Origin: an uncultured beta proteobacterium
GTDB lineage: Bacteria; Pseudomonadota; Gammaproteobacteria; Burkholderiales; SG8-41
Direction: 5' to 3'
DNA length: 64,000 nucleotides
Assembly (NCBI GenBank): GCA_963808765.1
Contig: CAWEHH010000030.1
Coordinates: forward strand, 97,483 to 161,482
A program made the position numbers and the translations under genes. Positions 9,044 to 60,691 of this stretch are shown here, in pieces. Numbering within the stretch: the first letter of the stretch is position 1; every line of letters begins with the position of its first letter. The notes beneath the pieces were generated by a model. The model did no database searches. It was not told the DNA's origin and worked only from the letters and a program-made list of their open reading frames with translations.

Positions 9044-9080
9044 GTCGGCGACGCCGCGCGACCCCACGAAAGGACCACCG

Positions 9081-10097
9081 ATGATCATCGACTGCCACGG
9101 ACACTACACGACCGAGCCCAAACCGCTGCTCGACTTCCGCAAGCGCCAGACCGAAGCCCTCAAAGATCCCGCCGCCCCACCCCTTTCGCCCGACTTCAAG
9201 GTGAGCGACGACGACATCCGCGAGACCATCGAAAAGAACCAGCTCCGCGTGCAGCAGACGCGCGGCGTCGATCTCACGATCTTCTCGCCGCGCGCGGGGG
9301 GCATGGCGCACCACGTCGGGACCGAGCGCACGAGCCTCGACTGGACGCGCGCGAGCAACGACATGATCCACCGCGTCTGCACCCTCTTCCCGAAGAACTA
9401 CGTCGGCGTGTGCCAGCTTCCGCAGTCTCCCGGCGTGAAGCCCGCGAACTGCATTCCCGAGCTCGTGCGCTGCGTGGAAGAGCTCGGCTTCATCGGCTGC
9501 AACCTGAATCCCGACCCGTCCGACGGCTACTGGACCGATCCGCCGCTCACCGATCGGCACTGGTATCCCCTCTACGAGAAGCTCGTCGAGCTCGACGTGC
9601 CGGCGATGGTCCACGTAAGCACGTCGTGCAATCCGAATTTCCACGGAACCGGCGCGCACTACATCAACGGCGATACGACGGCGTTCATGCAGTTCATCCT
9701 GTCGGATCTCTTCCGTGACTTCCCTACCCTGCGGGTCATCATTCCGCACGGTGGCGGAGCGGTGCCCTATCACTGGGGGCGCTACCGCGGGCTCGCGCAG
9801 GATCTGAAGCGCCCGCCGCTCACGGAACTCCTGAAAAACGTCTACTTCGACACGTGCGTGTATCACAAACCGGGGATGGAGCTCCTGCTTCGGGTCGTGC
9901 CTGTGGATAACGTGCTCTTCGCATCCGAGATCATCGGCGCCGTCAAAGGCATCGACCCCGAAACGGGTCACCACTACGACGACACGCGGCGCTACATCGA
10001 CGGCATCGAAACGCTCAGCGCCGCACAGCGCGAAAAGATCTTCAGCGCCAACGCGCTGAAGGTGTATCCGCGATTGAAATCGAGGCTGGCGCCTTGA
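9081..10097 (+). CDS. amidohydrolase family protein, LigJ-like (4-oxalomesaconate hydratase-like)
   Basis: Contains MIIDCHGHYT, DLTIFSPRA, GFIGCNLNPDPS, PPLTDRHWYPLYEKLVELDVPAMVHVS and IIPHGGGAVPYHWGR. These match my memory of LigJ; the activity itself is not established. Confidence 0.75.
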   Translation: MIIDCHGHYTTEPKPLLDFRKRQTEALKDPAAPPLSPDFKVSDDDIRETIEKNQLRVQQTRGVDLTIFSPRAGGMAHHVGTERTSLDWTRASNDMIHRVCTLFPKNYVGVCQLPQSPGVKPANCIPELVRCVEELGFIGCNLNPDPSDGYWTDPPLTDRHWYPLYEKLVELDVPAMVHVSTSCNPNFHGTGAHYINGDTTAFMQFILSDLFRDFPTLRVIIPHGGGAVPYHWGRYRGLAQDLKRPPLTELLKNVYFDTCVYHKPGMELLLRVVPVDNVLFASEIIGAVKGIDPETGHHYDDTRRYIDGIETLSAAQREKIFSANALKVYPRLKSRLAP

Positions 10098-33621: not shown

Positions 33622-34590
33622 CTACGTCCCACCGGTTCCCGGCAGGCCGCGCAGGAGCTTGCCCCACTTCAGCATGTCGCTGCGGATGATGTCGGCGAAC
33701 TCGTCGGGCTTGTTGCCGATCGTCTGAAACCCCTGCTCCAGGCCGTAGGCCTTCACGTCGGGCTGATGGAGGACGCCTGCGATATCGGCATGCAGCTTCG
33801 CCATGACCGGCTGCGGGGTGCCGGCGGGCGCGAGCAATCCGTACCACGTCGCCGCTTCGAAACCGGGCAGAGCCGATTCCGAGACCGTCGGCACGTTGGG
33901 CACGGACGGCCAGCGCGTCGGACTGCTGACCGCAATCGCCCGCAGCTTGCCGGACTTCACGTGCGGGAACGTGGTCGAGACCGCGCCGAACATGAGCTGT
34001 ATGTGTCCGCCGACGAGGTCGGTGACCGCGGGATTGCTCCCCTTATAGGGCACATGGACGATGTCGGTACCAGTGAGCGATTTGAAGAGCTCCATCGCGA
34101 GGAAGGGCGACGTGCCGCTGCCGCTCGAGCCGTACGTGAGCTGCCCGGGACGTGCCTTCGCCAGCGCGATGAGGTCCTTCACGCTCTTCACGGGCAACGA
34201 AGGATGGACGAGGAGCAGGTTGGGATTCGACGCGACGAGCGTGACCGGCACGAAGTCCTTCACCGGGTCATAGCCGAGTTTCCGCTGAAACGGCGTGATC
34301 GTGTGCGCGTTGGACACCATCACGAGCGTATAGCCGTCGGGGGTTGCTTTCGCGACGAGCTCCGTCGCGATCGAACCGTCCGCGCCCGGCCGGTTCTCGA
34401 CGACGAGTGCGTGAGGCCACGCGTCCGCGAGCTTCTTGCCGATGACGCGCGCCATGATGTCCGTACCGCCGCCGGGCGCGAAACCGACGATCATCCGCAC
34501 CGGCTTCGCGGGATAGCCCTGTGCGGATGCATGCGACATGAGCGCAATCCCAAGCGCAGCGGTGAACGCGGCGGCAACCCGACACAACAT
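33622..34590 (-). CDS. Bug/TctC family substrate-binding protein
   Basis: AGGAGGA lies before ATG 34590. Signal peptide, YPAKPVRMIVGFAPGGGTD and VVENRPGADG. Confidence 0.9.
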   Translation of the reverse strand: MLCRVAAAFTAALGIALMSHASAQGYPAKPVRMIVGFAPGGGTDIMARVIGKKLADAWPHALVVENRPGADGSIATELVAKATPDGYTLVMVSNAHTITPFQRKLGYDPVKDFVPVTLVASNPNLLLVHPSLPVKSVKDLIALAKARPGQLTYGSSGSGTSPFLAMELFKSLTGTDIVHVPYKGSNPAVTDLVGGHIQLMFGAVSTTFPHVKSGKLRAIAVSSPTRWPSVPNVPTVSESALPGFEAATWYGLLAPAGTPQPVMAKLHADIAGVLHQPDVKAYGLEQGFQTIGNKPDEFADIIRSDMLKWGKLLRGLPGTGGT

Positions 34591-34852
34591 CAGCCCTCCT
34601 CCTGTTCGCAACGGCGATGCTCGAATCGTCAGTCGCCACGCAAGCAGCGCGATGGGCAGGACTCGCGGGAACCGTTTGCATGCTCCATCGCCTTGCGGCG
34701 CCAACGCCTTTCCGCTTCCGCTCCATTCGGTGTTCCGCGGTCGCGCGATGTGGCAGAATTTAACCGCGATTCAATTCATGCCGCAACGGGCGCACCGGGT
34801 GGCCGCCGTACAGCGGCGTCGCGACGGGCGTATCGAGCACGAGGACGAAGAG

Positions 34853-36929: not shown

Positions 36930-37071
36930 GAGCAGACAGCGGCTCGAGCCGCCTGCTCCATGAGCCAATTCAGATCGCCGGCGGCCTTTGAAATGAGGCG
37001 GGCGATCTGCTCCGCACACCGACCTTCGACAAGCTCGTCGGTGCGCGAGGTGGCTGCGGTAAGCTTCGAAC

Positions 37072-38325
37072 ATGGCAGCCAAAGCCGCCCCACCCTCCGA
37101 AGACGAAGCCAATCCCCTCGCCGCCCTCAGGGTGCGCAGCTTTCGCCTCTACTGGCTTGCGCTCGTCACGCAGGTGGTGGGGCAGCACATGTTCGCCTTT
37201 ACGCTGGGATGGCTCGCCTTCGAGATCACGGGCTCGCAGGCGCAGCTCGGCTTCGTCCACCTGTGCGGGTTCCTTCCGCAGTTCACGCTGACGCTGCTCG
37301 GCGGCGTGCTGGCCGACCGGATCGACGCACGCAAGCTGATCGGTACGGCGCAGGCCAATGCCGCGATCGGAATGATCATCGTAGGCGTGACGGCGATGCT
37401 CGGCATGGCGCAGTTGTGGCATCTTGCGCTGGGTGCGTTCCTGGTGGGCCTGTCGGGCGCGATCGACGAGCCTGCGCGTGCCGCGTTCTTCCCGCGCCTG
37501 CTGCCGCGCATCCTTCTGCGCTCGGGGGTGCCGCTCATCTCGATGGCTTTCGGCGGCAGCCGGGTGATCGCCCCGTCGATCGCGGGCTTCCTCATCGCGG
37601 CGGCGGGTGCGCCACCGGTTTTTCTGCTGAGCGCGGCGGCCGTCACGACAATGGCGGCGATGCTGTTCTTCATCCATCCCGAGCGCGAAGCGGCGCCTTC
37701 GCACGGCAGCCTCTTGAGCAACTTTACGGACAGCGTGCGTTACATACGCGCGAACGAAGCCTTCGCCAAAGCGATCGGCGCCTCGCTGCTGAACGCGACA
37801 CTCGCCATGGGCTTCATCCACGTGCTGCCGGTGTTCGCCAAGGATCTGTTGATGGTCGATTCGCGCGGTCTTGGCATTCTCACCGCCGCTGCCGGTGCCG
37901 GCGCGCTGATCGGGTTCTTCACCTACGCCTGGTTGCAACTGCACGTCTCGGCGAGAAACCTGATCGTCAGCGCTCTGACGATCTACAACCTGGCGCTGAT
38001 CGGCCTCGCCTTCAGCGATTGGTACTGGCTCTCCTTCTCTTTCATTCTGCTCTCCGGCTTGTGCCACGCCTATTTCCTGACCTGCGTGCAGGTGATGCTG
38101 CAAACGCTCGTCGAGGACAGCTACCGCGGGCGCGTGATGAGCACGTTCGCGCTGGTTTGGAGCCTGATGTTCTTCAGCGGATTTCTATTGAACAGCGCCG
38201 GGGCGCTGGTCGGCCCGCGGCTTGCGCTCGCGGGCGGCGCGGCGATCGTGCTTGCCTACGTATGGCTCTCGCTCGTGCGCGCCCGCGCGTTGAGAAACGT
38301 CGTGCTGGCAACGAAGACGAGCTGA
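37072..38325 (+). CDS. MFS transporter (EntS/MFS_3-like)
   Basis: 417 aa, about 12 TM segments, with FRLYWLALVTQVVGQHM and GGVLADRIDARK motifs. Confidence 0.8.
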   Translation: MAAKAAPPSEDEANPLAALRVRSFRLYWLALVTQVVGQHMFAFTLGWLAFEITGSQAQLGFVHLCGFLPQFTLTLLGGVLADRIDARKLIGTAQANAAIGMIIVGVTAMLGMAQLWHLALGAFLVGLSGAIDEPARAAFFPRLLPRILLRSGVPLISMAFGGSRVIAPSIAGFLIAAAGAPPVFLLSAAAVTTMAAMLFFIHPEREAAPSHGSLLSNFTDSVRYIRANEAFAKAIGASLLNATLAMGFIHVLPVFAKDLLMVDSRGLGILTAAAGAGALIGFFTYAWLQLHVSARNLIVSALTIYNLALIGLAFSDWYWLSFSFILLSGLCHAYFLTCVQVMLQTLVEDSYRGRVMSTFALVWSLMFFSGFLLNSAGALVGPRLALAGGAAIVLAYVWLSLVRARALRNVVLATKTS

Positions 38326-38373
38326 AGCGGGGCCGTCAAGGGACTACGAGATCACGTCAGCATTTGTCACGCG

Positions 38374-38466
38374 GTCCCGTTCCTGCCCGAGGTGCCGACG
38401 TTCGCCGAGGCCGGCGCCCCGTAGTGGACGAAGGTGATCGGGACGATGGGCATCAAGCCGCAGTAG
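38374..38466 (+). pseudogene. Bug-family gene remnant with an internal deletion
   Basis: VPFLPEVPTFAEAGAP*WTKVIGTMGIKPQ*. The PxVPT.aEaG motif and the C-terminal W.KVI...GIKP. motif are joined by an in-frame stop, with about 70 codons missing. Confidence 0.4.
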
Positions 38467-39665
38467 AGACGGCCTCACGAGCCTGGAGCTTGTCCGCGAG
38501 CCAGTCCGCCATCACGTCGCACACGGCGGTGAGGTAGTCGCGCTGGCAGTGCTGCGCGCCGCCTTCCTCGGGCGTGAAGACGCGGAAGGTCTTGTCTTCC
38601 GAGCCGACGGCATCGAAGAGCTTCTGCGCGTCCGACATCGGGACCTGCTTGTCTTCGGTGCCGTGCGTGAGCAGAAACGGGCACTTCATCTTCTGCACGA
38701 TGCCGTCCAGCCTGAAGGCTTCGAGCTTCGCGAGCGCCTGCTCGAACGTCTCCACACCGAATACCCACTTCACGTGATCAGCGGGAACCGGCAGCGCGAC
38801 CGGCTTGCCCTCCTTCATTGCGGCTATCCGCTTCACCCACAACGCATGCACGTCCCACTGCGCGCCCCAGGCGATGCACGCGGCGAAGCGATGATCGAGC
38901 GCGGCACAGCGCGGTGCATAGTAGCCGCCGAGACTCAACGCGACGACCGCCACGCGATCGCTGTCGACGTCGGCACGCGTGGCGAGATAATCGAGGCACG
39001 CGCTGCCTGCGAGCTCGTAGTCGTGATGCAGGTGGATATTGCGGAAGCGGATCGACTCGCCCATCCCGGGGCCGTCGACCAGCAAGACCGAGAAGCCGCG
39101 GCGCGCGAGATCGCCGACGCCCCGCAGGTACTGCAGCTCTTTCTGGGTGTCGAAGCCACCGAAGCGCACGACGCAGGGCGCGCGCGGCCCCTTCTTCCAC
39201 TCCGCGTGGACGAAGATAGGCGGGAAGCCTGCCGTGCTCGTAGGCAATCTCCACTTTCTCGATGCGCGGACGATCGGTGAGCTTCATGTAATTATCGAAG
39301 CACTCGAGCGAGCGCCGGAACGTGTCCATCGCCGCTGCGTCCTTCGGATGCCGGAAGTGCTCGGCGTGCTGATACTGGGCACACGCACGCAGGTAACGCG
39401 ACGCCGCCGTGAAGCGATGTCGTGCGCCCTCCGCTTCCGCCGCACGCCGGCGCATCAGGTCTCCGCCTGCCGTCCACGCACGGAACCAGGCGTCGTCATC
39501 GCCGACGCAGGACTTCAACTGCCTGCCGATGCGATCGATCTCGCTGATATCCGGCTCCTCCGTAAGGCGCGGTGCCAGCATGGCGAGCATCTCCGCGGAC
39601 CAGCGGTAGTGCGTCGGGAAATACATGAAGTAGTTCGGCTGCTCGGCAGCAGGACTCGTTGTCAT
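38453..39665 (-). pseudogene. alpha/beta hydrolase with an N-terminal helical domain (DLH/S9-like), one frame break
   Basis: N-terminal NYFMYFPTHYRW...IEKVEIAYE. The next frame gives FPPIFVHAE..VVRFGGFD..ALSLGGYYA (nucleophile elbow)..LLTHGTEDKQVP. Break at ~39238-39245. The ATG overlaps the patatin stop (ATGA). Confidence 0.75.
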
Positions 39666-42636
39666 GCTCGCTCCTTCTCTTCTTTGCGCCTGAACAGGCC
39701 GCGCGCTTTGCCTGCGGCCTTCTCGGCCTGAACGCGCTTGGCGTAGGCCGCGACCTTCTGCTCATAAGCCGCCAGTGCCGGCTCGTCGGGCCACCCCGTG
39801 TTGCCGCCTGCCGCCGGCTTCCAGAGCTTCGCGATCGTATGCCAGCCCAGGAGCCGGTAGCTTTCGAACTGCGCTTCGTCGAAGAACTGATCGCCCGTGG
39901 ACTGGTGGGGAAACGGGCTCTTCGGATCGCGCGAGCGGCTCTCCTGCGCGTAGTGCATCACGTCGAGCGGTTCATCGCCGCAGAGAGTCGGTTTCACGTA
40001 GTAGACAACGCCCGGCGCACCGTCGTGATATCCGATGTGGCCGATGATGCAGCGACGCGGTTTGTCGAGCGTCTCGGGTGCGAAGTCGATGGAGATGCCG
40101 AAATCGACACGGATCTTGCGCATCACGTCCTGCAGATCCTTGTAGGCGCATTGCGGATCGGAGGTCGCATCCACGACGAGGATGCGGCGGCAGCCCCGGC
40201 GCACCATCTCGTAGAGCCCCAGGTTGTCGAAGTGGCCGCCGTCGGACAAGTAGAGGTACGGCCGACGCTCGTTCGTCGCGCTGAGCGCCTCCCACAGGAG
40301 CGGCCGCAGCGCCCAGCGCGGTTCGCTCGCGGCGTTGGCGAAGGCCGCCATTCTCCCCGTGTATCCGGGATTGGGCAGCCACCATCCGAGGCGCACGTTG
40401 AACAGCGTCATCACGATCGCCACCGGCGCGGAAGAGTGATAGCCCATGTTCGACGAGGCGGCCGCACCCGATATCGCCATCGCACGGCCCAGGCTGATGC
40501 CCGAATAGTCGCGCGAAGGAAGAAAGCCGACCACGTTGCTGCCCGAATGGAGCGCCGACACCGTGAACGAGGCCGCCTTGCGCTGCTGCCATTCGAGGCG
40601 ACCGCCGGTGGCGGACACGAGGTTCAGCGCGATGTTGACGACATGCAGCAGGCGGCGAGTGCCGGCGGGCTTACCGTCCGCGCCAGTCAACCCGTGCACT
40701 GCGCCGCGAATCCGGCCCGTCTCGAGCTCGCCCATCGTCACGTTGTCCCCGAAGTCGAGACCCGTGAACCAGTGCTGCTCGCGTTTATTCGGATCGCGCG
40801 CCGCCCCGAAGTACGCACGAACGAGCCGGTTGCCGTACATGCTGTGCAGCGAAAAAGTGTTGACGCCAACGAATCCGGCCGTGACGGCCGACAACACGAG
40901 CAGCAGGGCGAATAACGTCAGCGGCCATGCAACGCCCGCGGCATTCATGCGGCGGGCATAGGCCTTGCCCCAGGACTCGTCCGCGGCGCGGTTCGCTTCC
41001 GTAGCGGGCGCGCCGAGCGGGATCGCGTCCGCGGACGCCCGCGCGTCCTTCCTTTCGATCGCGGGCGGAGACTTCTCTGCCATTCCTTCGCGGCGAATCT
41101 CCTGCACCGTCTCGAAGGCTTCGGGTGTATTCTGACGGCAAAATCGATCGCGAAGCAGAACGCGATCAGCACCGCGACGATGAATACGATCGCCGCCAGA
41201 TCGAGGAGCCGCAGTCCGATGGCGCCGGCGACGGTTTGCGCCCGATCGGTGATCTTCGCGCCGTTCTTCGTCCAGTAGCCGATCGCCGCGACGGCGATGC
41301 CCCACAGCCCGCCGGCAGCCGCCACCGATTTTTCTTTCCCGTCGAGCGCTTCGGCGATCAATTCGGGCACGCATATCACGAGACTGAAGCCGAGCAGCCA
41401 GCACAGTGAGAAGCGCAGCCACCACGCGCCCGATCGCGACCACCATTCGCGGTCGCCTTCGGAGGTCCAGTACTTCACGAGCGCCACGTACAAGGTCGTG
41501 GCGAGCCAGAAGGCAAGCAGCAGCACGGGCGCGGTCACGAGGGCGTGCAAGGCCGGTTCTCTCAAGGCCGGCACGACGTTCGGAAGCCATACGGCCAGCG
41601 CATAGACCAGCGCGCCGCCCGCCGCGCCGCTCAATGCGAGCAGTGCCGCATCCGTGAGAAACGCAAGACGCGGATGGCGCTCGGACTTCGGGCGTTCGCC
41701 GATCTTGCGGACCTTGCGCCAGATCATTCCTGCGACACAGCCGAGGACGTGCAGCACGACACCGGCGATCACATACTGTGGAAAACGATCCGCCTCACGC
41801 AGGACTGAATCGTGCCAACCGATGACGATGCCGAGGAGCGCGGCAGCCCCCGCGATCGGCAGGAAGCAGAACAGCGGAAACCGATCGCGCGGCTCGGGCA
41901 AGGGACGTTTGTCGCTCGGCAGATCCGCGACCACGTAAGCGAGGCCGATCACGATCAGCAGCCCGGCTGCGCCAATGAGCGTCCACTCCCAGGAGGGCGC
42001 CGGGGCCGAACCCGCCGTGATGCCGACATAGAGCCGCGGCAGCAGGACCACCGCGAACAGCAGCGGCAGCAGCACGAGCCAGTTGAGCAGCAGATTGCGG
42101 AAGAAGATCGAGACGAGAGTGAAAAAATCGGTGGAGAGTCCCCAGACCGGGCTGAGATAGTTGCTGTAAGCGCGCAGGCTGCGTACCTGGCGCGGCCCGC
42201 CGGATGGAGAGGGCGCAGCGGCATGTCCGTCCAGCGCGTCCTGCACGCGATCGAGATCGCCCTGCTCCTCGTGTATCCAGCGTGACAGCCAGCTTCCGAT
42301 ATATCCGCCGCCGGAAACAGTGGAGAGATAATGGAAGCGCGTGAGCGCGCGCACCTCCGCAAGTCCCTGGAGCACGCCGAGCCCGAACGTGGCGCTGCGG
42401 ATTCCGCCACCCGACAGACAGAGCGCCCACGGCTCGTCCGCGTCGGCCGACGGCGGCGAGGCGTTCGCATTCCCCGGATCGACCTCATCACCCGCGATCG
42501 ATTGGGCGTCCGCTCCCGATGCGGCCGTGTAGATATCCGGGTTGATCGTGTCGGACAACCCGAGGAACCGGCGTTCCGCCCGGATCACGTCCTGGATGTC
42601 GATAGGATCAGGCAGCTTCCCTTCTGCTTCGGCCAT
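39662..42636 (-). pseudogene. patatin-like/cPLA2-like phospholipase (~990 aa) with a central multi-TM insertion, one frame break
   Basis: LCLSGGGIRSATFG (oxyanion hole) and YLSTVSGGGY (nucleophile) are in ORF 40945-42636. YLSDGGHFDNLG (catalytic Asp) is in ORF 39662-41590. About 10 hydrophobic helices lie between them. Frame change at ~41120-41140. Confidence 0.8.
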
Positions 42637-42659
42637 GAGCGTTCTCCCCTGAAGTCAGC

Positions 42660-42902
42660 GACAGCCTCCGCCGCGGCCTTGAACAGCTCCGCCTCGAGGT
42701 GCAGCCCGCTGCCGACGCCGCTCGACGCGTCGTTGAGTTGACCCCGACGCGATTTGCCGTAAGCGATCAGCTCCTGCACCGATTGAACCGGCAGCTTGGT
42801 CGCAGAGAAGAGAATGAAAGGCGAGCTTCCGACGAGCGACACCGGCGCGAGCTGCTTCGCGACATCGTAATCGAGCTTGCGGTAGAGGTACGGGTTGGTG
42901 AA
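42660..42902 (-). pseudogene. Bug-family gene fragment (central ~80 codons only)
   Basis: EFTNPYLYRKLDYDVAKQLAPVSLVGSSPFILFSATKLPVQSVQELIAYGKSRRGQLNDASSGVGSGLHLEAELFKAAA. Both ends are missing; it abuts the ABM stop and the patatin start. Confidence 0.6.
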
Positions 42903-42905
42903 CTC

Positions 42906-43208
42906 CTAAATGCAGTCGTTCGTGATCGCCTCGAAGTGCTCGGCCTGCGGCGGGTTCGCCCAGAACTTGCCGATGAGATCGCGGAACTGCTGGCGCTTGG
43001 GCGTCTGGCGGAAGTTCTTCTCGTGCGCTTCGACGCTCTCCCAGCGGATCATGTAGAAGTACTTCCCCGGCGTCTCGATGCAGCGCTGCATCTCGTGCGA
43101 GATATAACCTTCGCAGCTCGCGCTGATCGCCGCCGCCTGCGGGAATACGGTCTCGAACTCCTTCATCGATTCGGGCTTCACGGTCATGATTGCGACTTCG
43201 AGAATCAT
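42906..43208 (-). CDS. antibiotic biosynthesis monooxygenase (ABM) domain protein
   Basis: 100 aa. AAGGAG lies 7 nt before the ATG. Ferredoxin-like pattern EVAIMTVKPESMKEFE..YMIRWESVEAH. Confidence 0.75.
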   Translation of the reverse strand: MILEVAIMTVKPESMKEFETVFPQAAAISASCEGYISHEMQRCIETPGKYFYMIRWESVEAHEKNFRQTPKRQQFRDLIGKFWANPPQAEHFEAITNDCI

Positions 43209-43260
43209 CGTTGCGCTCCTTCGGTGTGGCGCCGGGCGTGGGGCCGCGGGGCTGGAGTGG

Positions 43261-44034
43261 TCAGCTGATCGTCACTGCGCCGTCGAGCAGCAGCGTGTGG
43301 CCGGTCACGTATGCGGCGCCCGGACTGGCGAGCCAGCGCACCGCTTCCGCGACATCTTCCATCGTGCAGAAACGTTTGATGGGGATCTGGGCAAGCGCCG
43401 CTTCGACGTACTTCGGATCGGCGGAGTTCTTCGCGCGGCTCGGCGATTTCGTGTCGACGCGTCCCGGCGCGACCGAATTCACGCGGATGCCGTGAGACGC
43501 CCACTCGACCGACAGCATGCGCGTCATGTGGTCGATCGCCGCCTTCGAGACGCCGTAAGCAACGCGTCCGGGCCGCGTGTTGACGAATCCGTGCGCGGAA
43601 GTGATGTTGATGATGAGCCCCGGGCGCTTCGCTTCGATGAGCCTACGCGCGAACGTCTGGGTCATGAAGAACGTGCCGTCGATGTTCGTGTTCATCACGT
43701 CGTCCCATTCGGGCGGCGTGATGTCGAGCGTCGGCTTCTGAAGCGGGACGCCGGCGTTGTTGACGAGCACGTCGAGGCTGCCGAAGTGATCGAACACCGC
43801 GGCGAACGCGGCCTCGATGCTTTCGAGGGAGCGGATGTCGACACTGACGCGCAGCGTGCGAGCGCCGGCCGCCTCCAGCTTCCGGTACGTCTCCGAGAGG
43901 CGCTGCGGATCACGCGCCGAGACCGCGAGGTCGAAACCGTCGCGCGCGAGCGCGAGCGCCGTCGCCGCGCCAATGCCGAATGCGGCGCCGGTGACGAACA
44001 CTGTTCGGCGGTTTGCAGCGTCTTGCTTCTCCAT
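43261..44034 (-). CDS. SDR family oxidoreductase
   Basis: Contains VFVTGAAFGIG, NNAG, YGVSKAA and PGRVDT. Confidence 0.85.
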   Translation of the reverse strand: MEKQDAANRRTVFVTGAAFGIGAATALALARDGFDLAVSARDPQRLSETYRKLEAAGARTLRVSVDIRSLESIEAAFAAVFDHFGSLDVLVNNAGVPLQKPTLDITPPEWDDVMNTNIDGTFFMTQTFARRLIEAKRPGLIINITSAHGFVNTRPGRVAYGVSKAAIDHMTRMLSVEWASHGIRVNSVAPGRVDTKSPSRAKNSADPKYVEAALAQIPIKRFCTMEDVAEAVRWLASPGAAYVTGHTLLLDGAVTIS

Positions 44035-44076
44035 CCTCCGTCCTTCGTTATGCTTGATTTCCCCCAACCCCTTTTT

Positions 44077-44137
44077 CCTCACCCACAGGGAGGGGAAACC
44101 TGCCCTTCTCCCCGTGGGAGAAGGGTCAGGGATGGAG
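44077..44137. repeat. GC-rich hairpin repeat, family 2
   Basis: cctcaccc..CCCTTCTCCCcgtGGGAGAAGGGtcagggatggag, with a perfect 10-bp stem at 44103-44125. Confidence 0.7.
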
Positions 44138-44142
44138 AGTTC

Positions 44143-45057
44143 TCACCACCCCCGCGGTTCGGCGCGGAGCACGTCCAGGCGCTCCAGCTCCGCCGCGAAA
44201 CCACTCCTCCCCTCCTCCTTCAATCCTTCCATCGGCGGGCGCGGCTCGCCCACGTCGCGGCCCATCGCGCGATGCGCAGACTTGAGCGCGCCGAATCCGT
44301 AGCGCTTCAGCGTCTGATACAACACCGCCGTGGCTTCCTGCGCTTTCCGCGCTTCGAAGTACTGCTCCGTGCGGCAGATGTCGTAGAGCCGCTTCACGAG
44401 CACCGGCGCGACACCCGCGAGCGCCGAGATCATCCCCGTCGCGCCGTTCGCGCCGGCCGAGATCATGTACTCCGTTCCGCAGATCAACTGAAAATCGGCG
44501 CGCACGCGTTGCGCGTTCGAGAGCACGTTGATCTGCCACTGCCAGTCGTTGCTGCTGTCGACGACGCCCGCGAAATTCGGGCGCTTGTCGATCAGCTTGA
44601 GCACGGTGTCGGTCCCGATCTTGGGCCCCGCCATATCCTCGGGCGCGTGCCACGCGAACACCGGCAGCTTGGTCGCCTTGCACACTTCGTCGAGGTGCTC
44701 GACGAGCATGTTGGCGGGCGGCGTCCAGTAATAGGGCGTCGTCACGATCACGCCCGCGGCGCCGGCCTGTTCGGCATGCTGCGCGCGCGACGCGGCGATC
44801 GAGGTTCCGGAGTCGCTCACGTGCGCGATGACGGGCACCTTGCCGCCCACGCGATTCACTACGAAGGAAACCAGTTTGCGTTGTTCCTCGTCGGTGAGGC
44901 TCACCGATTCCCCGACGTGCAGCGGCAGAGCGAGACCTTCCGCGCCGTGCTTCAGGTGAAAATCGATGAGCTTCCCGTAGAGCTGCCAGTCGACCGCGTT
45001 GTCGCGGTTGAACGTCGTGACGGGCGTGTGCAGGAGGCCGGGTCTTAGCGTTGACAT
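44143..45057 (-). CDS. dihydrodipicolinate synthase/N-acetylneuraminate lyase family (class I aldolase) protein
   Basis: 304 aa: LLHTPVTTF, GESVSLT, VIAHV, TTPYYW. Confidence 0.85.
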   Translation of the reverse strand: MSTLRPGLLHTPVTTFNRDNAVDWQLYGKLIDFHLKHGAEGLALPLHVGESVSLTDEEQRKLVSFVVNRVGGKVPVIAHVSDSGTSIAASRAQHAEQAGAAGVIVTTPYYWTPPANMLVEHLDEVCKATKLPVFAWHAPEDMAGPKIGTDTVLKLIDKRPNFAGVVDSSNDWQWQINVLSNAQRVRADFQLICGTEYMISAGANGATGMISALAGVAPVLVKRLYDICRTEQYFEARKAQEATAVLYQTLKRYGFGALKSAHRAMGRDVGEPRPPMEGLKEEGRSGFAAELERLDVLRAEPRGW

Positions 45058-45096: not shown

Positions 45097-46011
45097 CTAC
45101 CAGCCGTGCGGCTCGGTCGCGAAGATGCCGAGCTCGTCCAGTTGCTTGCCGATGTAGTCGATGCGCTCCTTGCTCGCAGTCGGCAGCGGCGGGCGCGTCG
45201 GTCCGACCGGACGGCCCATCAGCACCATCCCGCCCTTGAGCGACGACGGATACTGATCGCGGAAGAGATCCCACAGGCGTGCCAGCTTGAACTGAAGCTC
45301 GCGCGCTTTAACCGCGTTGCCGGAAGCGCACGCTTCGTAAAGCGACGTGCACAGATTCGGACAGATCGCGCCGGCCGAGGAGTACGAACCCTTGCCGCCC
45401 ATCGGAATCGCGGGCGCCAGAAACTCGACGCCGGAAATGAGAGAGAACTCTGGACGCAGCGCCAGTGCCACGCGCGCGATCTCCAGATACTTCTCGCTGT
45501 TGAAGCTCGCCTCCTTCATCGCGATAAAGTTCGGCAGCCGCTCGATCAGCCGGCGCGTGAGCTCCGCGTCGAACTCGACGCCGTCGAGATAGCTCGGCGA
45601 GTTGTAGGCGATCAGCGGCAGATCGGTCGTCGTGCCGAGCTTCACGAAGTAGTCGTGGAGCGACTCCTTCGTGTACTTCCAGAAGTAGGGCGTGATCGCG
45701 ATGATCGCGTCGGCGCCGATCTTCTTCGCGTGCTTCGCGAGCTCGATCGAGTCTTCGATGGCGAGCGCGCTCACGTGAATCGACACGGGCACGCGCTTGT
45801 TGACCACCTTCACCGCAACTTCGGCGAACGCCTTGCGCTCCGGAATCGTCAGGTTGAGCGATTCGCCCTTGTGGTGCGGCCACGAGATGGCGGTCGCGCC
45901 GGTGCGCACGTGGAAATCGAGCAGCTTTTCGAACGTCGCGAGGTCGGGACTGAAGTCCTCCTCGAGCGGCGTTACGGGGCTTTGCATCACGCCCTTGAGA
46001 ACGAGAGACAT
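45097..46011 (-). CDS. dihydrodipicolinate synthase family protein (second paralog)
   Basis: GGAG lies 5 nt before ATG 46011. Contains SPVTPL, GESLNLT, ITPYFW, YNSP and a C-terminal EPHGW like its neighbour (EPRGW). Confidence 0.85.
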   Translation of the reverse strand: MSLVLKGVMQSPVTPLEEDFSPDLATFEKLLDFHVRTGATAISWPHHKGESLNLTIPERKAFAEVAVKVVNKRVPVSIHVSALAIEDSIELAKHAKKIGADAIIAITPYFWKYTKESLHDYFVKLGTTTDLPLIAYNSPSYLDGVEFDAELTRRLIERLPNFIAMKEASFNSEKYLEIARVALALRPEFSLISGVEFLAPAIPMGGKGSYSSAGAICPNLCTSLYEACASGNAVKARELQFKLARLWDLFRDQYPSSLKGGMVLMGRPVGPTRPPLPTASKERIDYIGKQLDELGIFATEPHGW

Positions 46012-46028
46012 GGTCACTCCAGATGTCA

Positions 46029-46152
46029 GGTGCGGCGCTCGCCTCCGGCTCGGGCCTCGCCGCGGGAACAGAGGAAAACCAAGGTTTTCCTCCGTAACCT
46101 CCTTTCCTTTGGCCAAGCCGGGTGCGGCGCTCGCCTCCGGCTCGGGCCTCGC
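46029..46152. repeat. perfect 32-bp direct repeat pair flanking a 22-bp palindrome
   Basis: ggtgcggcgctcgcctccggctcgggcctcgc occurs at 46029-46060 and 46121-46152. The palindrome gaggaaaacc-aa-ggttttcctc is at 46071-46092. Confidence 0.8.
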
Positions 46153-46154
46153 TG

Positions 46155-46262
46155 CCCTTCGGAACCCCGCATGTTCTGCTCGAGGCCCCGTACATATTGA
46201 TGGAAATGCTAACGGACGCCGGAAGGCTTCGTTCGCGGGGCCCCGCTGCTTCGCAGCCCCAC
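46155..46262 (+). repeat. diverged copy of repeat family 3
   Basis: ctcgaggccccgtacatattgatggaaatgctaacggacgccggaaggcttcgttcgcgg aligns with the cores at 47400 and 48525. Confidence 0.45.
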
Positions 46263-46275
46263 TCACGATAACGGG

Positions 46276-47361
46276 GTGGTCCTAAGCAAAGGTGTTCCAA
46301 TTCTAGGTGATCGCGGTTGGAGCAGGCAGCCGAGGGCGGATAGAATCACTGTTAATCCACACGTTGAGAATCGAGGGCTTCCCATCGACCGTCTGCACGG
46401 AATACTGGTGTTCCTGCGCGTCGTCGAGAGCGGCAGCCTGAGCGCGACCGCGCGCACGCTCGGCGTTTCGACCTCCGCGGTGAGTGCCGCGCTCGCGCGC
46501 CTCGAGCGCAAGCTTGCGGTGCGGCTGCTCGATCGCACGACACGGCGTTTGAGCCCCACCGCGGAAGGCGCCGAGTTCTACGCGCGCTGCAAGCAGATCA
46601 CGGCGGACCTCGAGGAAGCGGAGTTGATCGTCGGACGCGCCGGCCGGGTCCCGAGCGGACGCCTGCGTGTGGGCATGCCTTCCGCGCTCTCGGCGATGTG
46701 GATCGTGCCGCGGCTTCCGGATTTCACGCGCGCCTATCCCTCGGTTTCGCTGGAAGTCGTGTGCAGCGATTTCGTGCCGTCAACGATCGCTGAGGGCGTC
46801 GACGTTTCAGTGCAGGTGGGCGAGCTCCACGCGTCGAGCTTGAGTGTGCGAAGGCTCGCTTCGGTGCGCTACGTCGTGTGCGCCGCGCCGAGTTACCTCG
46901 CGATCCACGGTCAGCCGCTCACGCCGGACGACCTGAGGTCGCACACGTGTCTCGAGTATCGCCGGCCGCGCAACGGCCGTATCCGCGACTGGCGTTTCGC
47001 CGAGAAGGGCGAGGTTCACGAGATCACGGTGACCGGTGCGATGACGTTCAACAGCGGCGAGGCGCTCGTCGCGGCGGCTGCAGCCGGACTCGGCGTGATC
47101 CAGGTCGCCGAGTACTACGCGTGGCCGCTCATCGACAGCGGGCGGCTGGTGGAGCTCCTGAGCGACTTCAAGACGGAAGGCCACGACATCTCCGTCGTGT
47201 TCCCGCAGCAGAAGCGCGTCGCGCCGAAGCTTCGCGTCTTCGTGGATTTTCTCGTGGCGCTGTTCGATCCACCGCCGTGGAAGCGCATGCCGGCGGCGAT
47301 CAAGACGCACAAGACGGCGCCGGTTCGAAGCGGCGAACGGGCGGCGTCGCGGGTGGCGTAA
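46276..47361 (+). CDS. LysR family transcriptional regulator
   Basis: HTH LHGILVFLRVVESGSLSATARTLGVSTSAVSAALARLE, then a LysR substrate-binding domain. The start is uncertain (GTG 46276 adds about 30 extra residues). Confidence 0.85.
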   Translation: MVLSKGVPILGDRGWSRQPRADRITVNPHVENRGLPIDRLHGILVFLRVVESGSLSATARTLGVSTSAVSAALARLERKLAVRLLDRTTRRLSPTAEGAEFYARCKQITADLEEAELIVGRAGRVPSGRLRVGMPSALSAMWIVPRLPDFTRAYPSVSLEVVCSDFVPSTIAEGVDVSVQVGELHASSLSVRRLASVRYVVCAAPSYLAIHGQPLTPDDLRSHTCLEYRRPRNGRIRDWRFAEKGEVHEITVTGAMTFNSGEALVAAAAAGLGVIQVAEYYAWPLIDSGRLVELLSDFKTEGHDISVVFPQQKRVAPKLRVFVDFLVALFDPPPWKRMPAAIKTHKTAPVRSGERAASRVA

Positions 47362-47507: not shown

Positions 47508-48488
47508 TCACTCCGGCTGCACTTTCGCGACGCGCATATGCTCCGCCGTCTCGGCGAAGTACTTCTTCAGGAACGCACGGAACTCCGCCGGAGTGTTGGC
47601 AACGATCACGTAGCCGCCCGCCTCGTAGAACTCGCGGATCTTGGGATTCTGCGTCGCTTTCGCAACGTCGCTCTGGATGCGCGAGACGATTGCGGGCGGC
47701 GTCCCGGCCGGAGCGAACATGCCGTGCCACGCGGCCTCGAACGCAAAGCCGGGCACCGTCTCACCGACTGTCGGTACTTCCGGCATCACAGTCCAGCGCT
47801 TCGCACCCGTGTAGGCGAGCACTTTCATCCGCCCCGCCTTGATGTGCTGGATCACCGTTGTCGGTGGAGCGAACGCCACCTGCACTTCGTTGCCCAGCAC
47901 GCCCGTGATGATGAGCGGCAGGCCCTTGTATGGCACGTGCATGAGCGCGGCACCCGAGCGATTGTTGAAGATCTCGCCGAGCAGATGCTGACTGTTGCCG
48001 ACGCCGCCGGAACCGTAGCGCACGGGCGGCTGCGCTTTCTTCGAAAGCTCGATCAGCTCTTTCAGCGATTGCACGGGCAACTGAGCGTTCGCGATGATCA
48101 GATAGCCCGGCAGCGTCGCGACGTTGGTGATCGGCGCGAAGTCGCGCATCACGTCGAACGGAAGCTTCTTGTACGCGAGCTGATTATTGGCAAACGAGTT
48201 CGACGTATAGAGCATCGTGTGGCCGTCAGGCGCCGCGCGGGCAACCGTCTCGCCGGCGATAATGCCGTTCGCGCCGCCACGGTTCTCGATCACGATGTTC
48301 TGCCCGAGCAGCTTCGTGAGAGGCTCGCTCAGCGCGCGCACGTTCGTGTCCTGACTGCCGCCCGGCGGCTGCGGCACGACGATGCGCACGGCGCGGATCG
48401 GATAGGGCTGCGCCCATGCGGAAGACGTGACGATCGCGAGCAGAGCGCAGGTCGCGAATACATGCAGCATCGACTTCGAGTCATGCAT
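47508..48488 (-). CDS. Bug/TctC family substrate-binding protein
   Basis: Start at MHDSKSM (48488). Signal peptide, YPIRAVRIVVPQPPGGSQD and VIENRGGANG. The ORF-track N-extension reads through repeat family 3. Confidence 0.9.
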   Translation of the reverse strand: MHDSKSMLHVFATCALLAIVTSSAWAQPYPIRAVRIVVPQPPGGSQDTNVRALSEPLTKLLGQNIVIENRGGANGIIAGETVARAAPDGHTMLYTSNSFANNQLAYKKLPFDVMRDFAPITNVATLPGYLIIANAQLPVQSLKELIELSKKAQPPVRYGSGGVGNSQHLLGEIFNNRSGAALMHVPYKGLPLIITGVLGNEVQVAFAPPTTVIQHIKAGRMKVLAYTGAKRWTVMPEVPTVGETVPGFAFEAAWHGMFAPAGTPPAIVSRIQSDVAKATQNPKIREFYEAGGYVIVANTPAEFRAFLKKYFAETAEHMRVAKVQPE

Positions 48489-48509
48489 CGGCTGGGGCTG
48501 TTTCGTTTT

Positions 48510-48615
48510 AAGCTCTCCTTCTGCCTCAGGCCTCGTACAATCGGACGAGAGTTCTAACGGGCGCCTGAATGTTACGCTCGCGGCGACAGCCTCTCCGAGG
48601 CGCGCCGCTCGCCAA
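48510..48615 (+). repeat. repeat family 3 copy
   Basis: ctcaggcctcgtacaatcggacgagagttctaacgggcgcctgaatgttacgctcgcggcgacagcctctccgaggcgcgccgctcgcc. Confidence 0.75.
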
Positions 48616-48619
48616 TGTG

Positions 48620-49585
48620 TCATTCGGGCTTGATATTGGCTTCACGCACCACCTTGCTCCATCTCGCCGTCTCGCTGCGTATGTACTTGCCGAATTCCAC
48701 CGAGCTCATGATCACCGTCTCGGCGCCCTCGGCTTCGAAGCGCTTGCGGATATCCTCGCTCTTCAGGACCGGCGCGATCTCCGAGTGCAGCTTCGAAATG
48801 ATGTCGCCCGGCGTGCCGGCAGGCGCGAGGATGCCCCACCAGTTGTTGGCTTCGTAACCGGGCAAACCGGACTCCATCACCGTCGGCACGTCGGGCATCG
48901 CGGGAACGCGTTTCGCACCACCGGTCGCGAGCGCCCTCAAGCGTCCCGATCGCACGTGGGGTATCACCTGGATGAGGGATCCAATGCACAGCTCCGTGTT
49001 GCCGGCAATCACATCGGCCATTGCCGGCCCGCCGCCCTTGAACGGCACGTGAGTGATCTTCACACCCGCGAGCACGTTGAACATCTCGCTGCTCAGGTGC
49101 TGAAAGCTGCCGACCCCGGCAGACGCATAGTTGAGCGCGCCCGGTTTCGACTTCGCAAGCGCGATGAGGTCCTTGACCGTCTTCACCGGCAGTTGCGGAT
49201 GCGCCGTAAACGCGTTCGGCCCGCGACCCAGTATCGATACGGGCACGAACGACTTCTCCGGATCGTATTTCAGCATCGATTTATACATTGCCGGGTTATA
49301 GGCGTACGCCACCGAGATCACGAGCAGCGTGTAGCCGTCGGGCTTCGAGTTCGCTGCCGCCTCAGTGCCGATCATGCCGCCCGCGCCGCCACGATTGTCT
49401 ACGATCACCTGCTGGCCGAGCCGACCGGTCAGCTCGTGCCCGATCTGGCGCGCGACGATATCGTTGCTTCCGCCGGGCGGAAACGGCACGATCAGCCTGA
49501 CGGGCTTCAACGGATATTGAGCGAACGCTGCGGTGCTGGCCGCGAGCAGCGCGAGCGACACCACGGCTTTTGCAACACGTTTCAT
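48620..49585 (-). CDS. Bug/TctC family substrate-binding protein
   Basis: GAGGAG lies before ATG 49585. Signal peptide, YPLKPVRLIVPFPPGGSND and VIVDNRGGAGG. Confidence 0.9.
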   Translation of the reverse strand: MKRVAKAVVSLALLAASTAAFAQYPLKPVRLIVPFPPGGSNDIVARQIGHELTGRLGQQVIVDNRGGAGGMIGTEAAANSKPDGYTLLVISVAYAYNPAMYKSMLKYDPEKSFVPVSILGRGPNAFTAHPQLPVKTVKDLIALAKSKPGALNYASAGVGSFQHLSSEMFNVLAGVKITHVPFKGGGPAMADVIAGNTELCIGSLIQVIPHVRSGRLRALATGGAKRVPAMPDVPTVMESGLPGYEANNWWGILAPAGTPGDIISKLHSEIAPVLKSEDIRKRFEAEGAETVIMSSVEFGKYIRSETARWSKVVREANIKPE

Positions 49586-58627: not shown

Positions 58628-58765
58628 GGAAGTGAAGGGATGACGGGAGTGCGAAAGGTCACGAGCGTGAAGCGTGAGATGTGAAACGTAAGGGCAGGAC
58701 GGCGTGAGGGTGTGAGAGTGAAGGCGTGGAGGGTGTGAGAGTGAAGGCGTGGAGGGTGAAGAGTA
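58615..58765 (+). repeat. C-depleted GTGA/GAGGG-rich low-complexity tract with a 23-bp tandem repeat (2.6 copies)
   Basis: gagggtgtgagagtgaaggcgtg occurs at 58706-58728 and 58729-58751, with a partial third copy. There is almost no C on the + strand for about 150 bp. Confidence 0.8.
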
Positions 58766-58790
58766 AGCGCAGGCGCCTGGAAAAACGAGT

Positions 58791-58859
58791 CGTCGTTCCG
58801 GCGCGCAGGTGCACCCCGGACCACGTCGGCGCGACGACGATCCGGGGCCGGAATCCAGG
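58791..58859. repeat. REP-like unit, family 1, nested variant
   Basis: cgtcgttccggcgcgcaggtgcaccccggaccac..gatccggggccggaatccagg. Same architecture as 7625-7697. Confidence 0.7.
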
Positions 58860-58899
58860 CGCCGTTTCAACGATTCTCACGCCTGGATTGCGGATCTGT

Positions 58900-59891
58900 G
58901 TGCTGACGCACCTCCGCAATGACGGCCGTTTGTGGTTGCTCATGACTGCGCTCGTCGCTGCCGCGCTGTTTCATGTACACGCTGAAGCCCAAACGTATCC
59001 GACGCGCCCTGTGCGAATGATCATCCCCGCCGGCGCGGGCGGGATCACCGACATTCTCGGCCGCGTGATCGCCGCGAAGCTCACCGACGCGCTCGGCCAG
59101 CAGGTCATCGTAGACAACCGTCCGGGCGCAAGCGGCATCGTCGGCTCGAGCATCGTCGCGAAATCGGCGCCGGACGGTCACACGCTGCTGATGGTGTTCC
59201 CCTCGCACCCGGTCAATCCGAGCCTGTATCCGGACATTCCCTTCGACACGTCGAAAGCGTTCGCGCCGATCAGCATGGTGAGCGCCGTCGCGCCGGTGCT
59301 CATCGTGAGCAGCCAATCCCCGGCGAAGTCGGTGCAGGACCTCATTGCGCTCGCCAAAGCGAAGCCCGGAGCGCTGCAACCACGGCTCGGTCGGCAGCGG
59401 CAGCATGGGCGCGCTCGCGGCGGAGCTTCTGCGCACGCTGGCAAAGATCAACTTCACGCAAGTGAGCTACAAAGGTTCGCCGCAGGCGCTGACGGCGCTC
59501 CTCTCGGGCGAGATCGAGTTCTATCTCATCGGCTCCGCCGGCACCGTCGTGCCGCACGTGAAGGCGGGCCGCATCCGCGCGCTCGGCGTCGGCGCGAAGC
59601 AGCGCATATCCGTGCTGCCCGACGTGCCGCCGATCGGTGAGACCGTGCCCGGCTACGAAGCGCGCGGCTGGAACGGCATCCTCGCGCCCGCCGGCACGCC
59701 GAAGCCGATCGTCGATCGCCTGCATCAGGAGATCGTCGAAGGTCGTGCGCTCGCCCGAGTTCGGCCAGGTGCTGACCGGCGAAGGCGCGACGCCGATCGG
59801 CAACACGCCCGCCGAGTTCGACGCGATCATTCGTGCGGACATCGCCAAGTGGGCGAAGATCATCAAGGAAAACGGAATCCGCGCGCAGTAA
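58900..59891 (+). pseudogene. Bug/TctC family substrate-binding protein, two frame breaks
   Basis: GTG 58900. Signal, YPTRPVRMIIPAGAGGITD and VIVDNRPGASG. Breaks at ~59377 and ~59738. C-terminal KWAKIIKENGIRAQ*. Confidence 0.8.
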
Positions 59892-59904
59892 TCGAGGAAC
59901 CCCG

Positions 59905-60691
59905 ATGCCTTACATCGAAGCGAAAGACTGCAAGCTGCATTACACGATCGACGATCACACCGACCCATGGAGCACGCCCGATACGGTGCTGTTCGTCCAC
60001 GGATTCACCGAGAACACCGAAGCGTGGCGCCAGTGGGTGCCGCATTTCTCGCGACACTATCGCGTCGTTCGCATCGACCAGCGCGGCTTCGGCAAATCCG
60101 GGGCGGTGCCGAAGGACTATCGGTTGACGACCGAGCTCTACGTCGACGACCTCGTGAAAGTCATCACTGAGGTGTGTGGCGGACGCGCCCACGTCGTGGG
60201 AGGGAAGAGCGGCGGCATCAGCGTGATGAGTCTCGCGGCGAGCCGGCCCGACATCGTGAAGACGATCACGGCGATCTGCTCGCCGGTCACGCCGCCCGCG
60301 GCCGAGGGCTGGATCGAAGAGATGGAGCGCGACGGCATGCGCAGTTGGGCGAAGCGCACGCAGCGAAGCCGCATGGGCTCGCAGATGCCGGATGCGGGCA
60401 TCGAATGGTGGTCGGACCTGATGGGCGCGACGCCGCTCTCGACTGCGCATGCCTACCTTCGCTGGGTCGGCGCGATCGATATCCGCGAAGACATCAGGCA
60501 GATCCGCTGTCCGACGCTCGTCATCGGCACCGACACGCAGCGCCGCGGACGGGAGGTGTTCGAAGGCTGGGCAGAAGACGATTCCGAATGCCGAGCTGGG
60601 GATGATTCCGGTGGACGGCTATCACGCCGCGGCAACGGATCCCGATCAGACGGCGGGCGTCGTGCGTAAGTTCATCGACCGGCATCGTTGA
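59905..60691 (+). pseudogene. alpha/beta fold hydrolase (paralog of 2929-3762), one frame break
   Basis: GAGGAA lies before ATG 59905. Contains LHYTIDDHTDPW, VLFVHGF, RIDQRGFGKS and GGKSGG. The C-terminus QKTIPNAELGMIPVDGYHAA is in another frame. Break at the GGG run 60569-60571. Confidence 0.8.

Follow-up and report, generated by a model that had tools for sequence, protein, structure and literature searches.

A polytopic patatin/cPLA2-like gene and its probable insertion beside an unrelated hydrolase in a Bug-rich gene cluster of an uncultured beta proteobacterium

The closest described relatives of the protein considered here are the cytosolic phospholipases A2 (cPLA2; GIVA and GIVD, PDB entries 1CJY and 5IZ5) and the patatin-domain proteins ExoU, VipD and CapV/CapE (PF01734). 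The cPLA2 enzymes combine a GGGxR oxyanion motif with a nucleophilic serine in an xxSGG elbow and an aspartate in a DGG-type motif, and a large insertion, the cap, which is soluble and has a lid, lies between the serine and the aspartate. ExoU, VipD and CapV/CapE are soluble, secreted or peripheral proteins whose activation depends on host cofactors or cyclic nucleotides, and patatin effectors are used in cyclic oligonucleotide-based antiphage signalling systems (CBASS) and in other defence systems. We analysed a stretch of 64 000 nucleotides from an uncultured beta proteobacterium (contig CAWEHH010000030.1 of assembly GCA_963808765.1; hereafter the window, to whose first letter coordinates refer) that contains a gene encoding a polytopic patatin/cPLA2-like protein (39662–42636, minus strand), followed by a gene encoding an alpha/beta hydrolase (38453–39665, minus strand). 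An earlier note on this DNA had described the two as a coupled module of two lipase folds that seemed to have together replaced the 3' part of a gene for a Bug/TctC receptor. The comparisons presented here make another history probable, namely a gene-sized insertion of a solo patatin, putatively a Ser108/Asp799 membrane acyl hydrolase, beside an unrelated resident hydrolase. The adjacency of the two genes would then be an accident of the insertion junction and not the mark of a two-enzyme system.

The patatin gene is distributed over two open reading frames (ORFs), its N-terminal part being ORF 40945–42636 and its C-terminal part lying within ORF 39662–41590 (both minus strand). When the nearest homolog of full length (P0001, 1016 amino acids, 66% identity across the whole length) was used as tblastn query, the change of frame fell between 41143 and 41119, which fits a 1-nt deletion at about 41134, where the codons gtc (V501) and cag (Q502) share one c. 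The frame-corrected polypeptide comprises 991 amino acids. The three catalytic motifs named in the earlier note were all present, and an alignment of 30 homologs at 41–68% identity was used to assess their conservation. In the oxyanion-hole motif SGGGIRS (residues 75–81, 42394–42414), S75, G76, G77, G78, R80 and S81 were invariant. The same was true of V107, S108, G109 and G110 in the nucleophile elbow TVSGGG (residues 106–111, 42304–42321, with S108 encoded at 42313–42315), in which threonine replaces the first glycine of G-x-S-x-G, and of S798, D799, G800, G801, H802, F803 and N805 in the aspartate motif SDGGHFDNLG (residues 798–807, 40217–40246, with D799 at 40241–40243). The catalytic aspartate lies 691 residues downstream of the serine, and the spacing of about 500 residues given previously needs this minor correction. 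Hydropathy analysis revealed ten transmembrane (TM) segments within residues 182–592 (40862–42093), and the Lys and Arg residues of the short loops alternated according to the positive-inside rule, predicting that both the N-terminal part, with the oxyanion hole and the serine, and the C-terminal part, with the aspartate, are cytoplasmic. A loop of 72 amino acids between TM9 and TM10 was predicted to be periplasmic.

An AlphaFold2 model based on the alignment (mean predicted local distance difference test score 77, predicted TM-score 0.76) placed a bundle of long helices at residues 169–590 between beta/alpha elements at residues 70–160 and 597–940. Foldseek searches of this model against the PDB returned human cPLA2alpha (1CJY) and cPLA2delta (5IZ5) as top matches (probability 1.0, about 400 aligned columns), with VipD, CapE and ExoU as weak later matches, and no significant match for the membrane domain. 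The Pfam Patatin profile PF01734 scored 31.3 bits against a cut-off of 27.7, its match at residues 72–120 enclosing TVSGGG and covering profile positions 1–47 of 191 only. By this assignment the Ser-Asp dyad chemistry of ExoU, VipD and CapV/CapE would be expected here as well. No NCBIfam model matched the patatin. A sequence-profile search of the PDB, which was swamped by spurious coiled-coil matches to C-terminal extensions that some homologs carry, gave only VipD and cPLA2delta at E 0.03–0.2 (cPLA2 at E 0.19). Sequence and model together support the view, already put forward in the earlier note, that the protein is a Ser-Asp hydrolase of the patatin/cPLA2 type into which about ten TM helices are inserted. 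Its likeness to cPLA2, the best structural match, lies in the three motifs and in the large insertion between serine and aspartate; however, identity was only 12–13% with TM-scores of 0.2–0.3, a C2 domain is missing, the origin is bacterial, and the insertion is a ten-helix integral membrane domain instead of a soluble cap with a lid. From ExoU, VipD and CapV/CapE it differs in being polytopic. A literature search found no paper on a membrane-embedded or polytopic bacterial patatin.

The history of the locus was reconstructed by comparison with L001, the most similar of the contigs that carry an intact ortholog of the hydrolase. Four blocks of the window were syntenic with it: the MFS gene (window 37053–38325, L001 14867–13595, 85% nucleotide identity), the hydrolase gene (38483–39677, L001 11182–9989, 88.7%), a fragment of a Bug gene immediately upstream of the patatin (42677–42893, L001 9428–9212, 83.9%) and the ABM gene (42903–43230, L001 1233–906, 89.6%). 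In L001, positions 9212–9428 sit within an intact TctC gene (8915–9883) directly upstream of the hydrolase, so that a relative with an uninterrupted Bug gene at this site, for which the earlier note had proposed to search, was indeed found. In the window just 72 internal codons of it remain (minus strand). They are orthologous to the L001 gene by identity and synteny and match positions 53–129 of 274 in the Pfam TctC profile (E 1.6e-14), which agrees with the previous description of a stump truncated at both ends. The complete TctC domain and a signal peptide are absent, as are the start and the C-terminal lobe, and from its sequence the fragment is judged to be non-functional. As L001 retains the whole Bug gene where the window has only an internal fragment, the arrangement in the window is the derived one. 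The element that replaced the 3' part of the Bug gene was not the gene pair, as had been thought, but a 3.0-kb patatin segment alone (39678–42676), which occupies the position where L001 has the final ~455 nt of its TctC gene followed by a spacer of 105 nt; the hydrolase is resident, its L001 ortholog lying directly downstream of the intact Bug gene without a patatin. Two further stretches of L001 are missing from the window. Upstream, about 8 kb comprising seven genes and the first 99 codons of TctC are deleted, the ABM stop region being joined to the middle of the Bug gene at a junction of 9 nt (42894–42902, minus strand). Downstream, about 2.4 kb are absent (window 38326–38482 compared with L001 11192–13594), with a beta-lactamase-family gene and a TctC gene that lie between the hydrolase and MFS genes in both L001 and L002.

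The limits of the patatin segment were examined against L006, the contig with the closest patatin. Similarity to L006 starts 13 nt 5' of the patatin ATG (GGGGAGAACGyTCATGGCC). The patatin leader of 40 nt (42637–42676, minus strand) appears to have arrived with the gene, its Shine-Dalgarno sequence GGGGAG and spacer (42637–42649) being conserved in L006. At the other end, similarity to L006 stops at AAAGAAGAGAAG; L006 then runs ACGGAGAAGAGCGGC for 27 more codons, whereas the window enters the hydrolase leader, leaving its patatin without about 27 tail codons relative to L006. Homology to L001 resumes at GAAGGAGCGAGCATGA, the hydrolase's own Shine-Dalgarno sequence and start, for which the L001 counterpart is GAAGGAGCGATCGTGA. 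The native leader GAAGGAGCGAGC, including the Shine-Dalgarno sequence, together with the first base of the ATG (39665), extends over 39665–39677 (minus strand), position 39677 being where L001 homology resumes. Between the donor-type GAGAAGAGCG and the recipient-type GGAAGGAGCG, 8 of 10 bases are shared, and microhomology-mediated illegitimate recombination offers a plausible origin for this 3' junction. Since the junction lies there, the last 4–5 codons and the stop of the patatin gene (39662–39677) derive from the hydrolase leader, as does the ATGA formed by the patatin stop and the hydrolase ATG (39662–39665 by ORF coordinates). The overlap noticed earlier is real; the co-translation read from it as an evolved feature is not borne out, since both the stop and the overlap come from the leader of the hydrolase.

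We propose the following course of events. A 3.0-kb fragment containing only the polytopic patatin with its own Shine-Dalgarno sequence would have entered a catabolic cluster, plastic and rich in Bug genes, in a genome of the Burkholderiales type, replacing the ~455 nt at the Bug 3' end and the spacer. The incoming gene would have lacked its last ~27 codons and would have been joined within a short GAAG/GAG-rich microhomology just 5' of the hydrolase start, so that its ORF now runs into the hydrolase leader and ends at the TGA overlapping the hydrolase ATG. The ~8-kb upstream and ~2.4-kb downstream deletions would have reshaped the same locus, and the LysR-associated DHDPS/SDR/ABM operon would supply the transcription of the patatin by read-through. 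A promoter-like site directly upstream of the patatin was not found, nor were any meaningful terminators. On this reading, the locus would be an example of an overlapping stop and start, an arrangement usually taken as a sign of functional pairing, produced by a recombination junction.

The hydrolase gene is likewise split, between ORFs 38778–39665 and 38453–39247, with a frame switch between 39226 and 39213 and a 1-nt insertion at about 39216 relative to its orthologs. The C-terminal ORF falls in a 90%-identity cluster of intact 396-amino-acid proteins from Burkholderiales metagenome-assembled genomes. Pfam matches were to the FrsA-like, Peptidase_S9 and Hydrolase_4 families. The intact ortholog P0122 matched 2,6-dihydroxy-pseudo-oxynicotine (DHPON) hydrolase (2JBW; E 7e-24, residues 58–391), and also SMU_737 and the Ayg1/AntI C-C hydrolases. 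With 2JBW and the FrsA-like enzymes it shares an N-terminal helical domain and an alpha/beta core; it is not a FrsA equivalog, scoring 45.8 bits against an NCBIfam cut-off of 477. Because its closest relations are with 2JBW and Ayg1/AntI, the hydrolase was interpreted as being of the C-C hydrolase type and not a lipase, which fits the catabolic neighbourhoods of its orthologs (Bug, CoA-transferase and PrpD-type genes) and removes the second of the two lipase folds that had been suggested. The hydrolase appears to be a resident enzyme of the DHPON-hydrolase/FrsA-like kind that is unrelated to the patatin.

These results bear directly on the possibility that patatin and hydrolase form a co-translated two-enzyme module for lipid processing which entered the Bug gene in one piece. 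The ATGA overlap and the fact that both proteins are serine hydrolases speak for such a module, as do other esterase-type genes found upstream of the patatin in two sister-clade loci (a GDSL lipase gene in L087 and a DUF900 gene in L090). We nevertheless consider it highly improbable. Relatives of the hydrolase at 85–92% identity occupy the same spot, between the same Bug gene and MFS gene, without a patatin, and the intact 396-amino-acid orthologs have no patatin neighbour in any of five contigs (L001–L005). The overlap is built from the hydrolase's own leader, in which the hydrolase keeps its own GGAG Shine-Dalgarno sequence, and the enzyme is of the catabolic C-C hydrolase/FrsA type. Conversely, the hydrolase was present in no patatin locus examined, and the conserved partner in the nearest patatin clade is a lipoprotein of 184 amino acids that is absent here.

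The last two points rest on a survey of the patatin family, which comprises 10 251 clusters at 50% identity (E ≤ 1e-30). A scan of one genome per species identified relatives in at least 591 GTDB species genomes belonging to the Proteobacteria, Acidobacteriota, Nitrospirota, Verrucomicrobiota, Bacteroidota, Gemmatimonadota, Planctomycetota, Methylomirabilota and other phyla. Neighbouring genes were analysed in the best 80 patatin loci from these at least 591 genomes, with 10 kb on either side. By tblastn, the hydrolase was absent from all 80 loci, and it was also absent from 16 further patatin loci (11 metagenomic and 5 others), the flanks available being 6–10 kb overall. A conserved patatin-hydrolase operon was accordingly seen in 0 of 96 patatin loci and 0 of 5 hydrolase-ortholog loci, which answers in the negative the earlier note's question of whether the pairing is conserved among homologs and tells against the coupled module it had envisaged. 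Clustering of flanking ORFs in the 80 loci revealed no widely conserved neighbour, the best being a second patatin-like gene in 9 of them. The 139 immediate neighbours matched 134 different Pfam families, headed by Patatin (7) and HerA-like ATPase (4), without enrichment of alpha/beta hydrolases, and in an annotated Burkholderia megaplasmid homolog every neighbour was a hypothetical protein. Members of the family are mostly solo genes without a conserved operon partner.

The second patatin/cPLA2-like gene encodes a protein of about 480 amino acids and is located about 160 nt upstream on the same strand (for example, L029 1357–2799), mainly in Nitrospira and Acidobacteriota; its product, a soluble protein, begins with a signal or lipoprotein-like sequence and lacks the TM insertion. 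Members of the clade nearest to the window patatin (46–60% identity; P0005, P0009, L094, L096, L097 and L101) have a longer periplasmic loop between TM9 and TM10 and a C-terminal extension of about 200 amino acids. A gene 3' of the patatin in this clade (L087 11858–12412, L090 7581–8135, and in L094, L096, L097 and L101) encodes a predicted lipoprotein of about 184 amino acids with a signal peptide and a lipobox cysteine but without a Pfam family; in L087 and L090 it has a 4-nt overlap with the patatin stop. Neither the window nor L006 contains this gene.

Given the use of patatin effectors in antiviral systems, we asked whether the polytopic patatin might be a self-contained conflict or abortive-infection effector, which would destroy the membrane of its own cell once an attack is sensed by its TM or periplasmic part. 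CapE was among the weak fold matches, the distribution of the family is patchy and strain-specific, as the insertion described here shows, and HerA-like genes are neighbours in 4–5 loci. In addition, one homolog (P0085, 1443 amino acids, from a JGI metagenome) has an N-terminal TIR_2 domain (E 1.2e-10). This was the sole case among the 120 best matches, and the long N- or C-terminal extensions of 15 homologs included this one TIR_2 domain, the others being unannotated or coiled-coil. PADLOC matched neither the patatin nor the hydrolase, and among the 139 immediate neighbours it detected no cyclase and no defence enrichment beyond the HerA-like genes, which reflect a synteny particular to the Nitrospira lineage. 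Family members were found in no phage and on only 41 of 72 556 plasmids, mostly megaplasmids. Unlike CBASS or secreted patatins, the window gene has no partner cyclase and no secretion-system context, and no cyclase or defence gene lies near it in the window, consistent with the earlier remark that neither cyclase nor sensor accompanies it. We regard such an effector function as doubtful, and hold the same view of a defence or self-lysis role in general.

Returning to the insertion of a solo patatin, we propose for its product a Ser108/Asp799 acyl hydrolase in which a cytoplasmic cPLA2-like domain is seated on a ten-helix membrane domain. Phospholipids or lysophospholipids in the cytoplasmic leaflet of the inner membrane would be its probable substrates, and deacylation of either is somewhat better than an even guess at the chemistry. 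The membrane domain, occupying the place of the cPLA2 cap, would probably control lipid access or respond to an envelope signal. Hints of such regulation are the larger periplasmic loop and the co-translated lipoprotein of sister clades, and the TIR domain of one homolog. By extension, the class might consist of signal-gated phospholipases, in which the membrane domain and a variable periplasmic loop sense the envelope and trigger deacylation in the inner leaflet, the lipoprotein acting as a co-sensor in sister clades and the outcome being membrane remodelling driven by stress or a regulated self-lysis. This remains a tentative suggestion that we would not rate as likely; if true, phospholipase control would work here in a way that has not been described for patatins. 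The family, with more than 10 000 clusters in many phyla and a cPLA2-like domain split by a polytopic membrane domain, is uncharacterised yet abundant in databases. Once characterised, it could explain how acyl chains are removed from a bacterium's own inner-membrane lipids and in what way the bilayer-embedded part of a phospholipase can gate the enzyme.

The assembly itself was considered as a source of the arrangement. A misjoin of the 3.0-kb patatin segment from elsewhere in the metagenome would mean that the arrangement exists in no cell, and the contig, in which indel-type frame breaks are numerous, does look like the product of a metagenome-style assembly. A metagenome scan for close relatives or for the same junctions yielded nothing above 60% identity, and the junctions were seen in no other sample. 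Such a chimera is, however, very unlikely in our view, as neither junction lies in a repeat able to mislead an assembler, unique sequence is present on both sides of the Bug fragment, composition is uniform, and the 3' junction resembles microhomology-mediated recombination that left an open reading frame. The G+C content at third codon positions (GC3) of the patatin, 0.80–0.83, is like that of neighbouring genes. No meaningful flanking repeats were detected around the patatin segment, and a test for a mobile element (tRNAs being outside the scan) found no flanking repeats, no shift in GC or GC3, and metabolic neighbours. By sequence and fold, the protein belongs to the patatin/cPLA2 superfamily, but its surroundings show neither CBASS, nor a conserved operon, nor a recognisable mobile element.

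Frame breaks are widespread in the window, with at least seven split genes in 64 kb including the patatin and the hydrolase. The other five, recognised by Pfam domains continuing across two frames, are in genes for a zinc-dependent alcohol dehydrogenase (ADH; ~17500, ADH_zinc_N 1–52 then 54–127), an SDR protein (~27200), an FAD protein (~36700, FAD_binding_2 1–344 then 364–405), a TPP enzyme (~58270, TPP_enzyme_C 1–46 then 48–151) and a TctC protein (~59350). The earlier observation of one frame break in each of the two genes (here placed at ~41134 and ~39216) holds, but the breaks belong to a window-wide pattern and are not specific to the locus. Compared with L001 and L002, the hydrolase shows three additional 1-nt indels (39576, 39554 and 38483). 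The first two, one of them a deletion and the other an insertion, are separated by 22 nt and enclose an out-of-frame stretch of 7 codons after which the frame is restored, and represent either a compensated frameshift or paired errors. The ratio of non-synonymous to synonymous substitution (dN/dS) relative to L001 was 0.08 for the hydrolase, 0.09 for the MFS gene, 0.07 for the ABM gene and 0.08 for the Bug fragment. As the hydrolase value equals that of its intact neighbours, these genes were under purifying selection until very recently, which rules out the hydrolase as an old pseudogene. Consensus indel errors of the assembly are the most likely cause of the frame breaks, and the other five split genes suggest that such errors run through the entire contig.

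Were the breaks real, patatin and hydrolase would be recent pseudogenes in a locus that is being lost piecemeal, an interpretation to which the three rearrangements within 5 kb and the deletion of presumed pathway neighbours of the hydrolase would lend themselves, as would its four 1-nt indels against none in the MFS gene, the ABM gene and the Bug fragment. We consider this unlikely, in view of the low dN/dS of the hydrolase, of the breaks that also affect the ADH, SDR, FAD, TPP-enzyme and TctC genes of the window, and of the fact that both genes retain all catalytic motifs and full-length similarity. The insertion of a solo patatin beside a resident hydrolase is in our judgement the better account, but several points weigh against it. 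Four single-nucleotide indels in the 1.2 kb of the hydrolase are denser than a uniform error rate would produce; the junctions and indels are those of the assembled sequence; identity to the nearest patatin homolog is no higher than 66%, and the movement of a single gene is accounted for by no signature of a mobile element. Moreover, even an overlap of accidental origin could in fact couple the translation of the two genes in this strain.

The genes upstream of the Bug fragment correspond to the LysR, DHDPS, SDR and ABM context previously reported. Genes encoding ABM (42906–43208), SDR (43261–44082) and two DHDPS proteins (44143–45057 and 45097–46266) lie on the minus strand, and a divergent gene for a LysR regulator (46276–47361) on the plus strand. 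On the other side of the hydrolase, a convergent MFS_3 transporter gene (37072–38325, plus strand) is syntenic with L001. In L001 itself, a TctC gene is split into parts of 163 and 142 amino acids and there is a 164-amino-acid fragment of a second FrsA-like hydrolase (2076–2946 and 8341–8835). Bug-rich clusters look highly plastic in relatives too, or else L001 carries similar errors. At least five Bug/TctC genes or fragments were present in the 64 kb of the window (33622–34704, 47508–48623, 48620–49585, 58726–60127 and the fragment at 42677–42893), an abundance typical of Burkholderiales.

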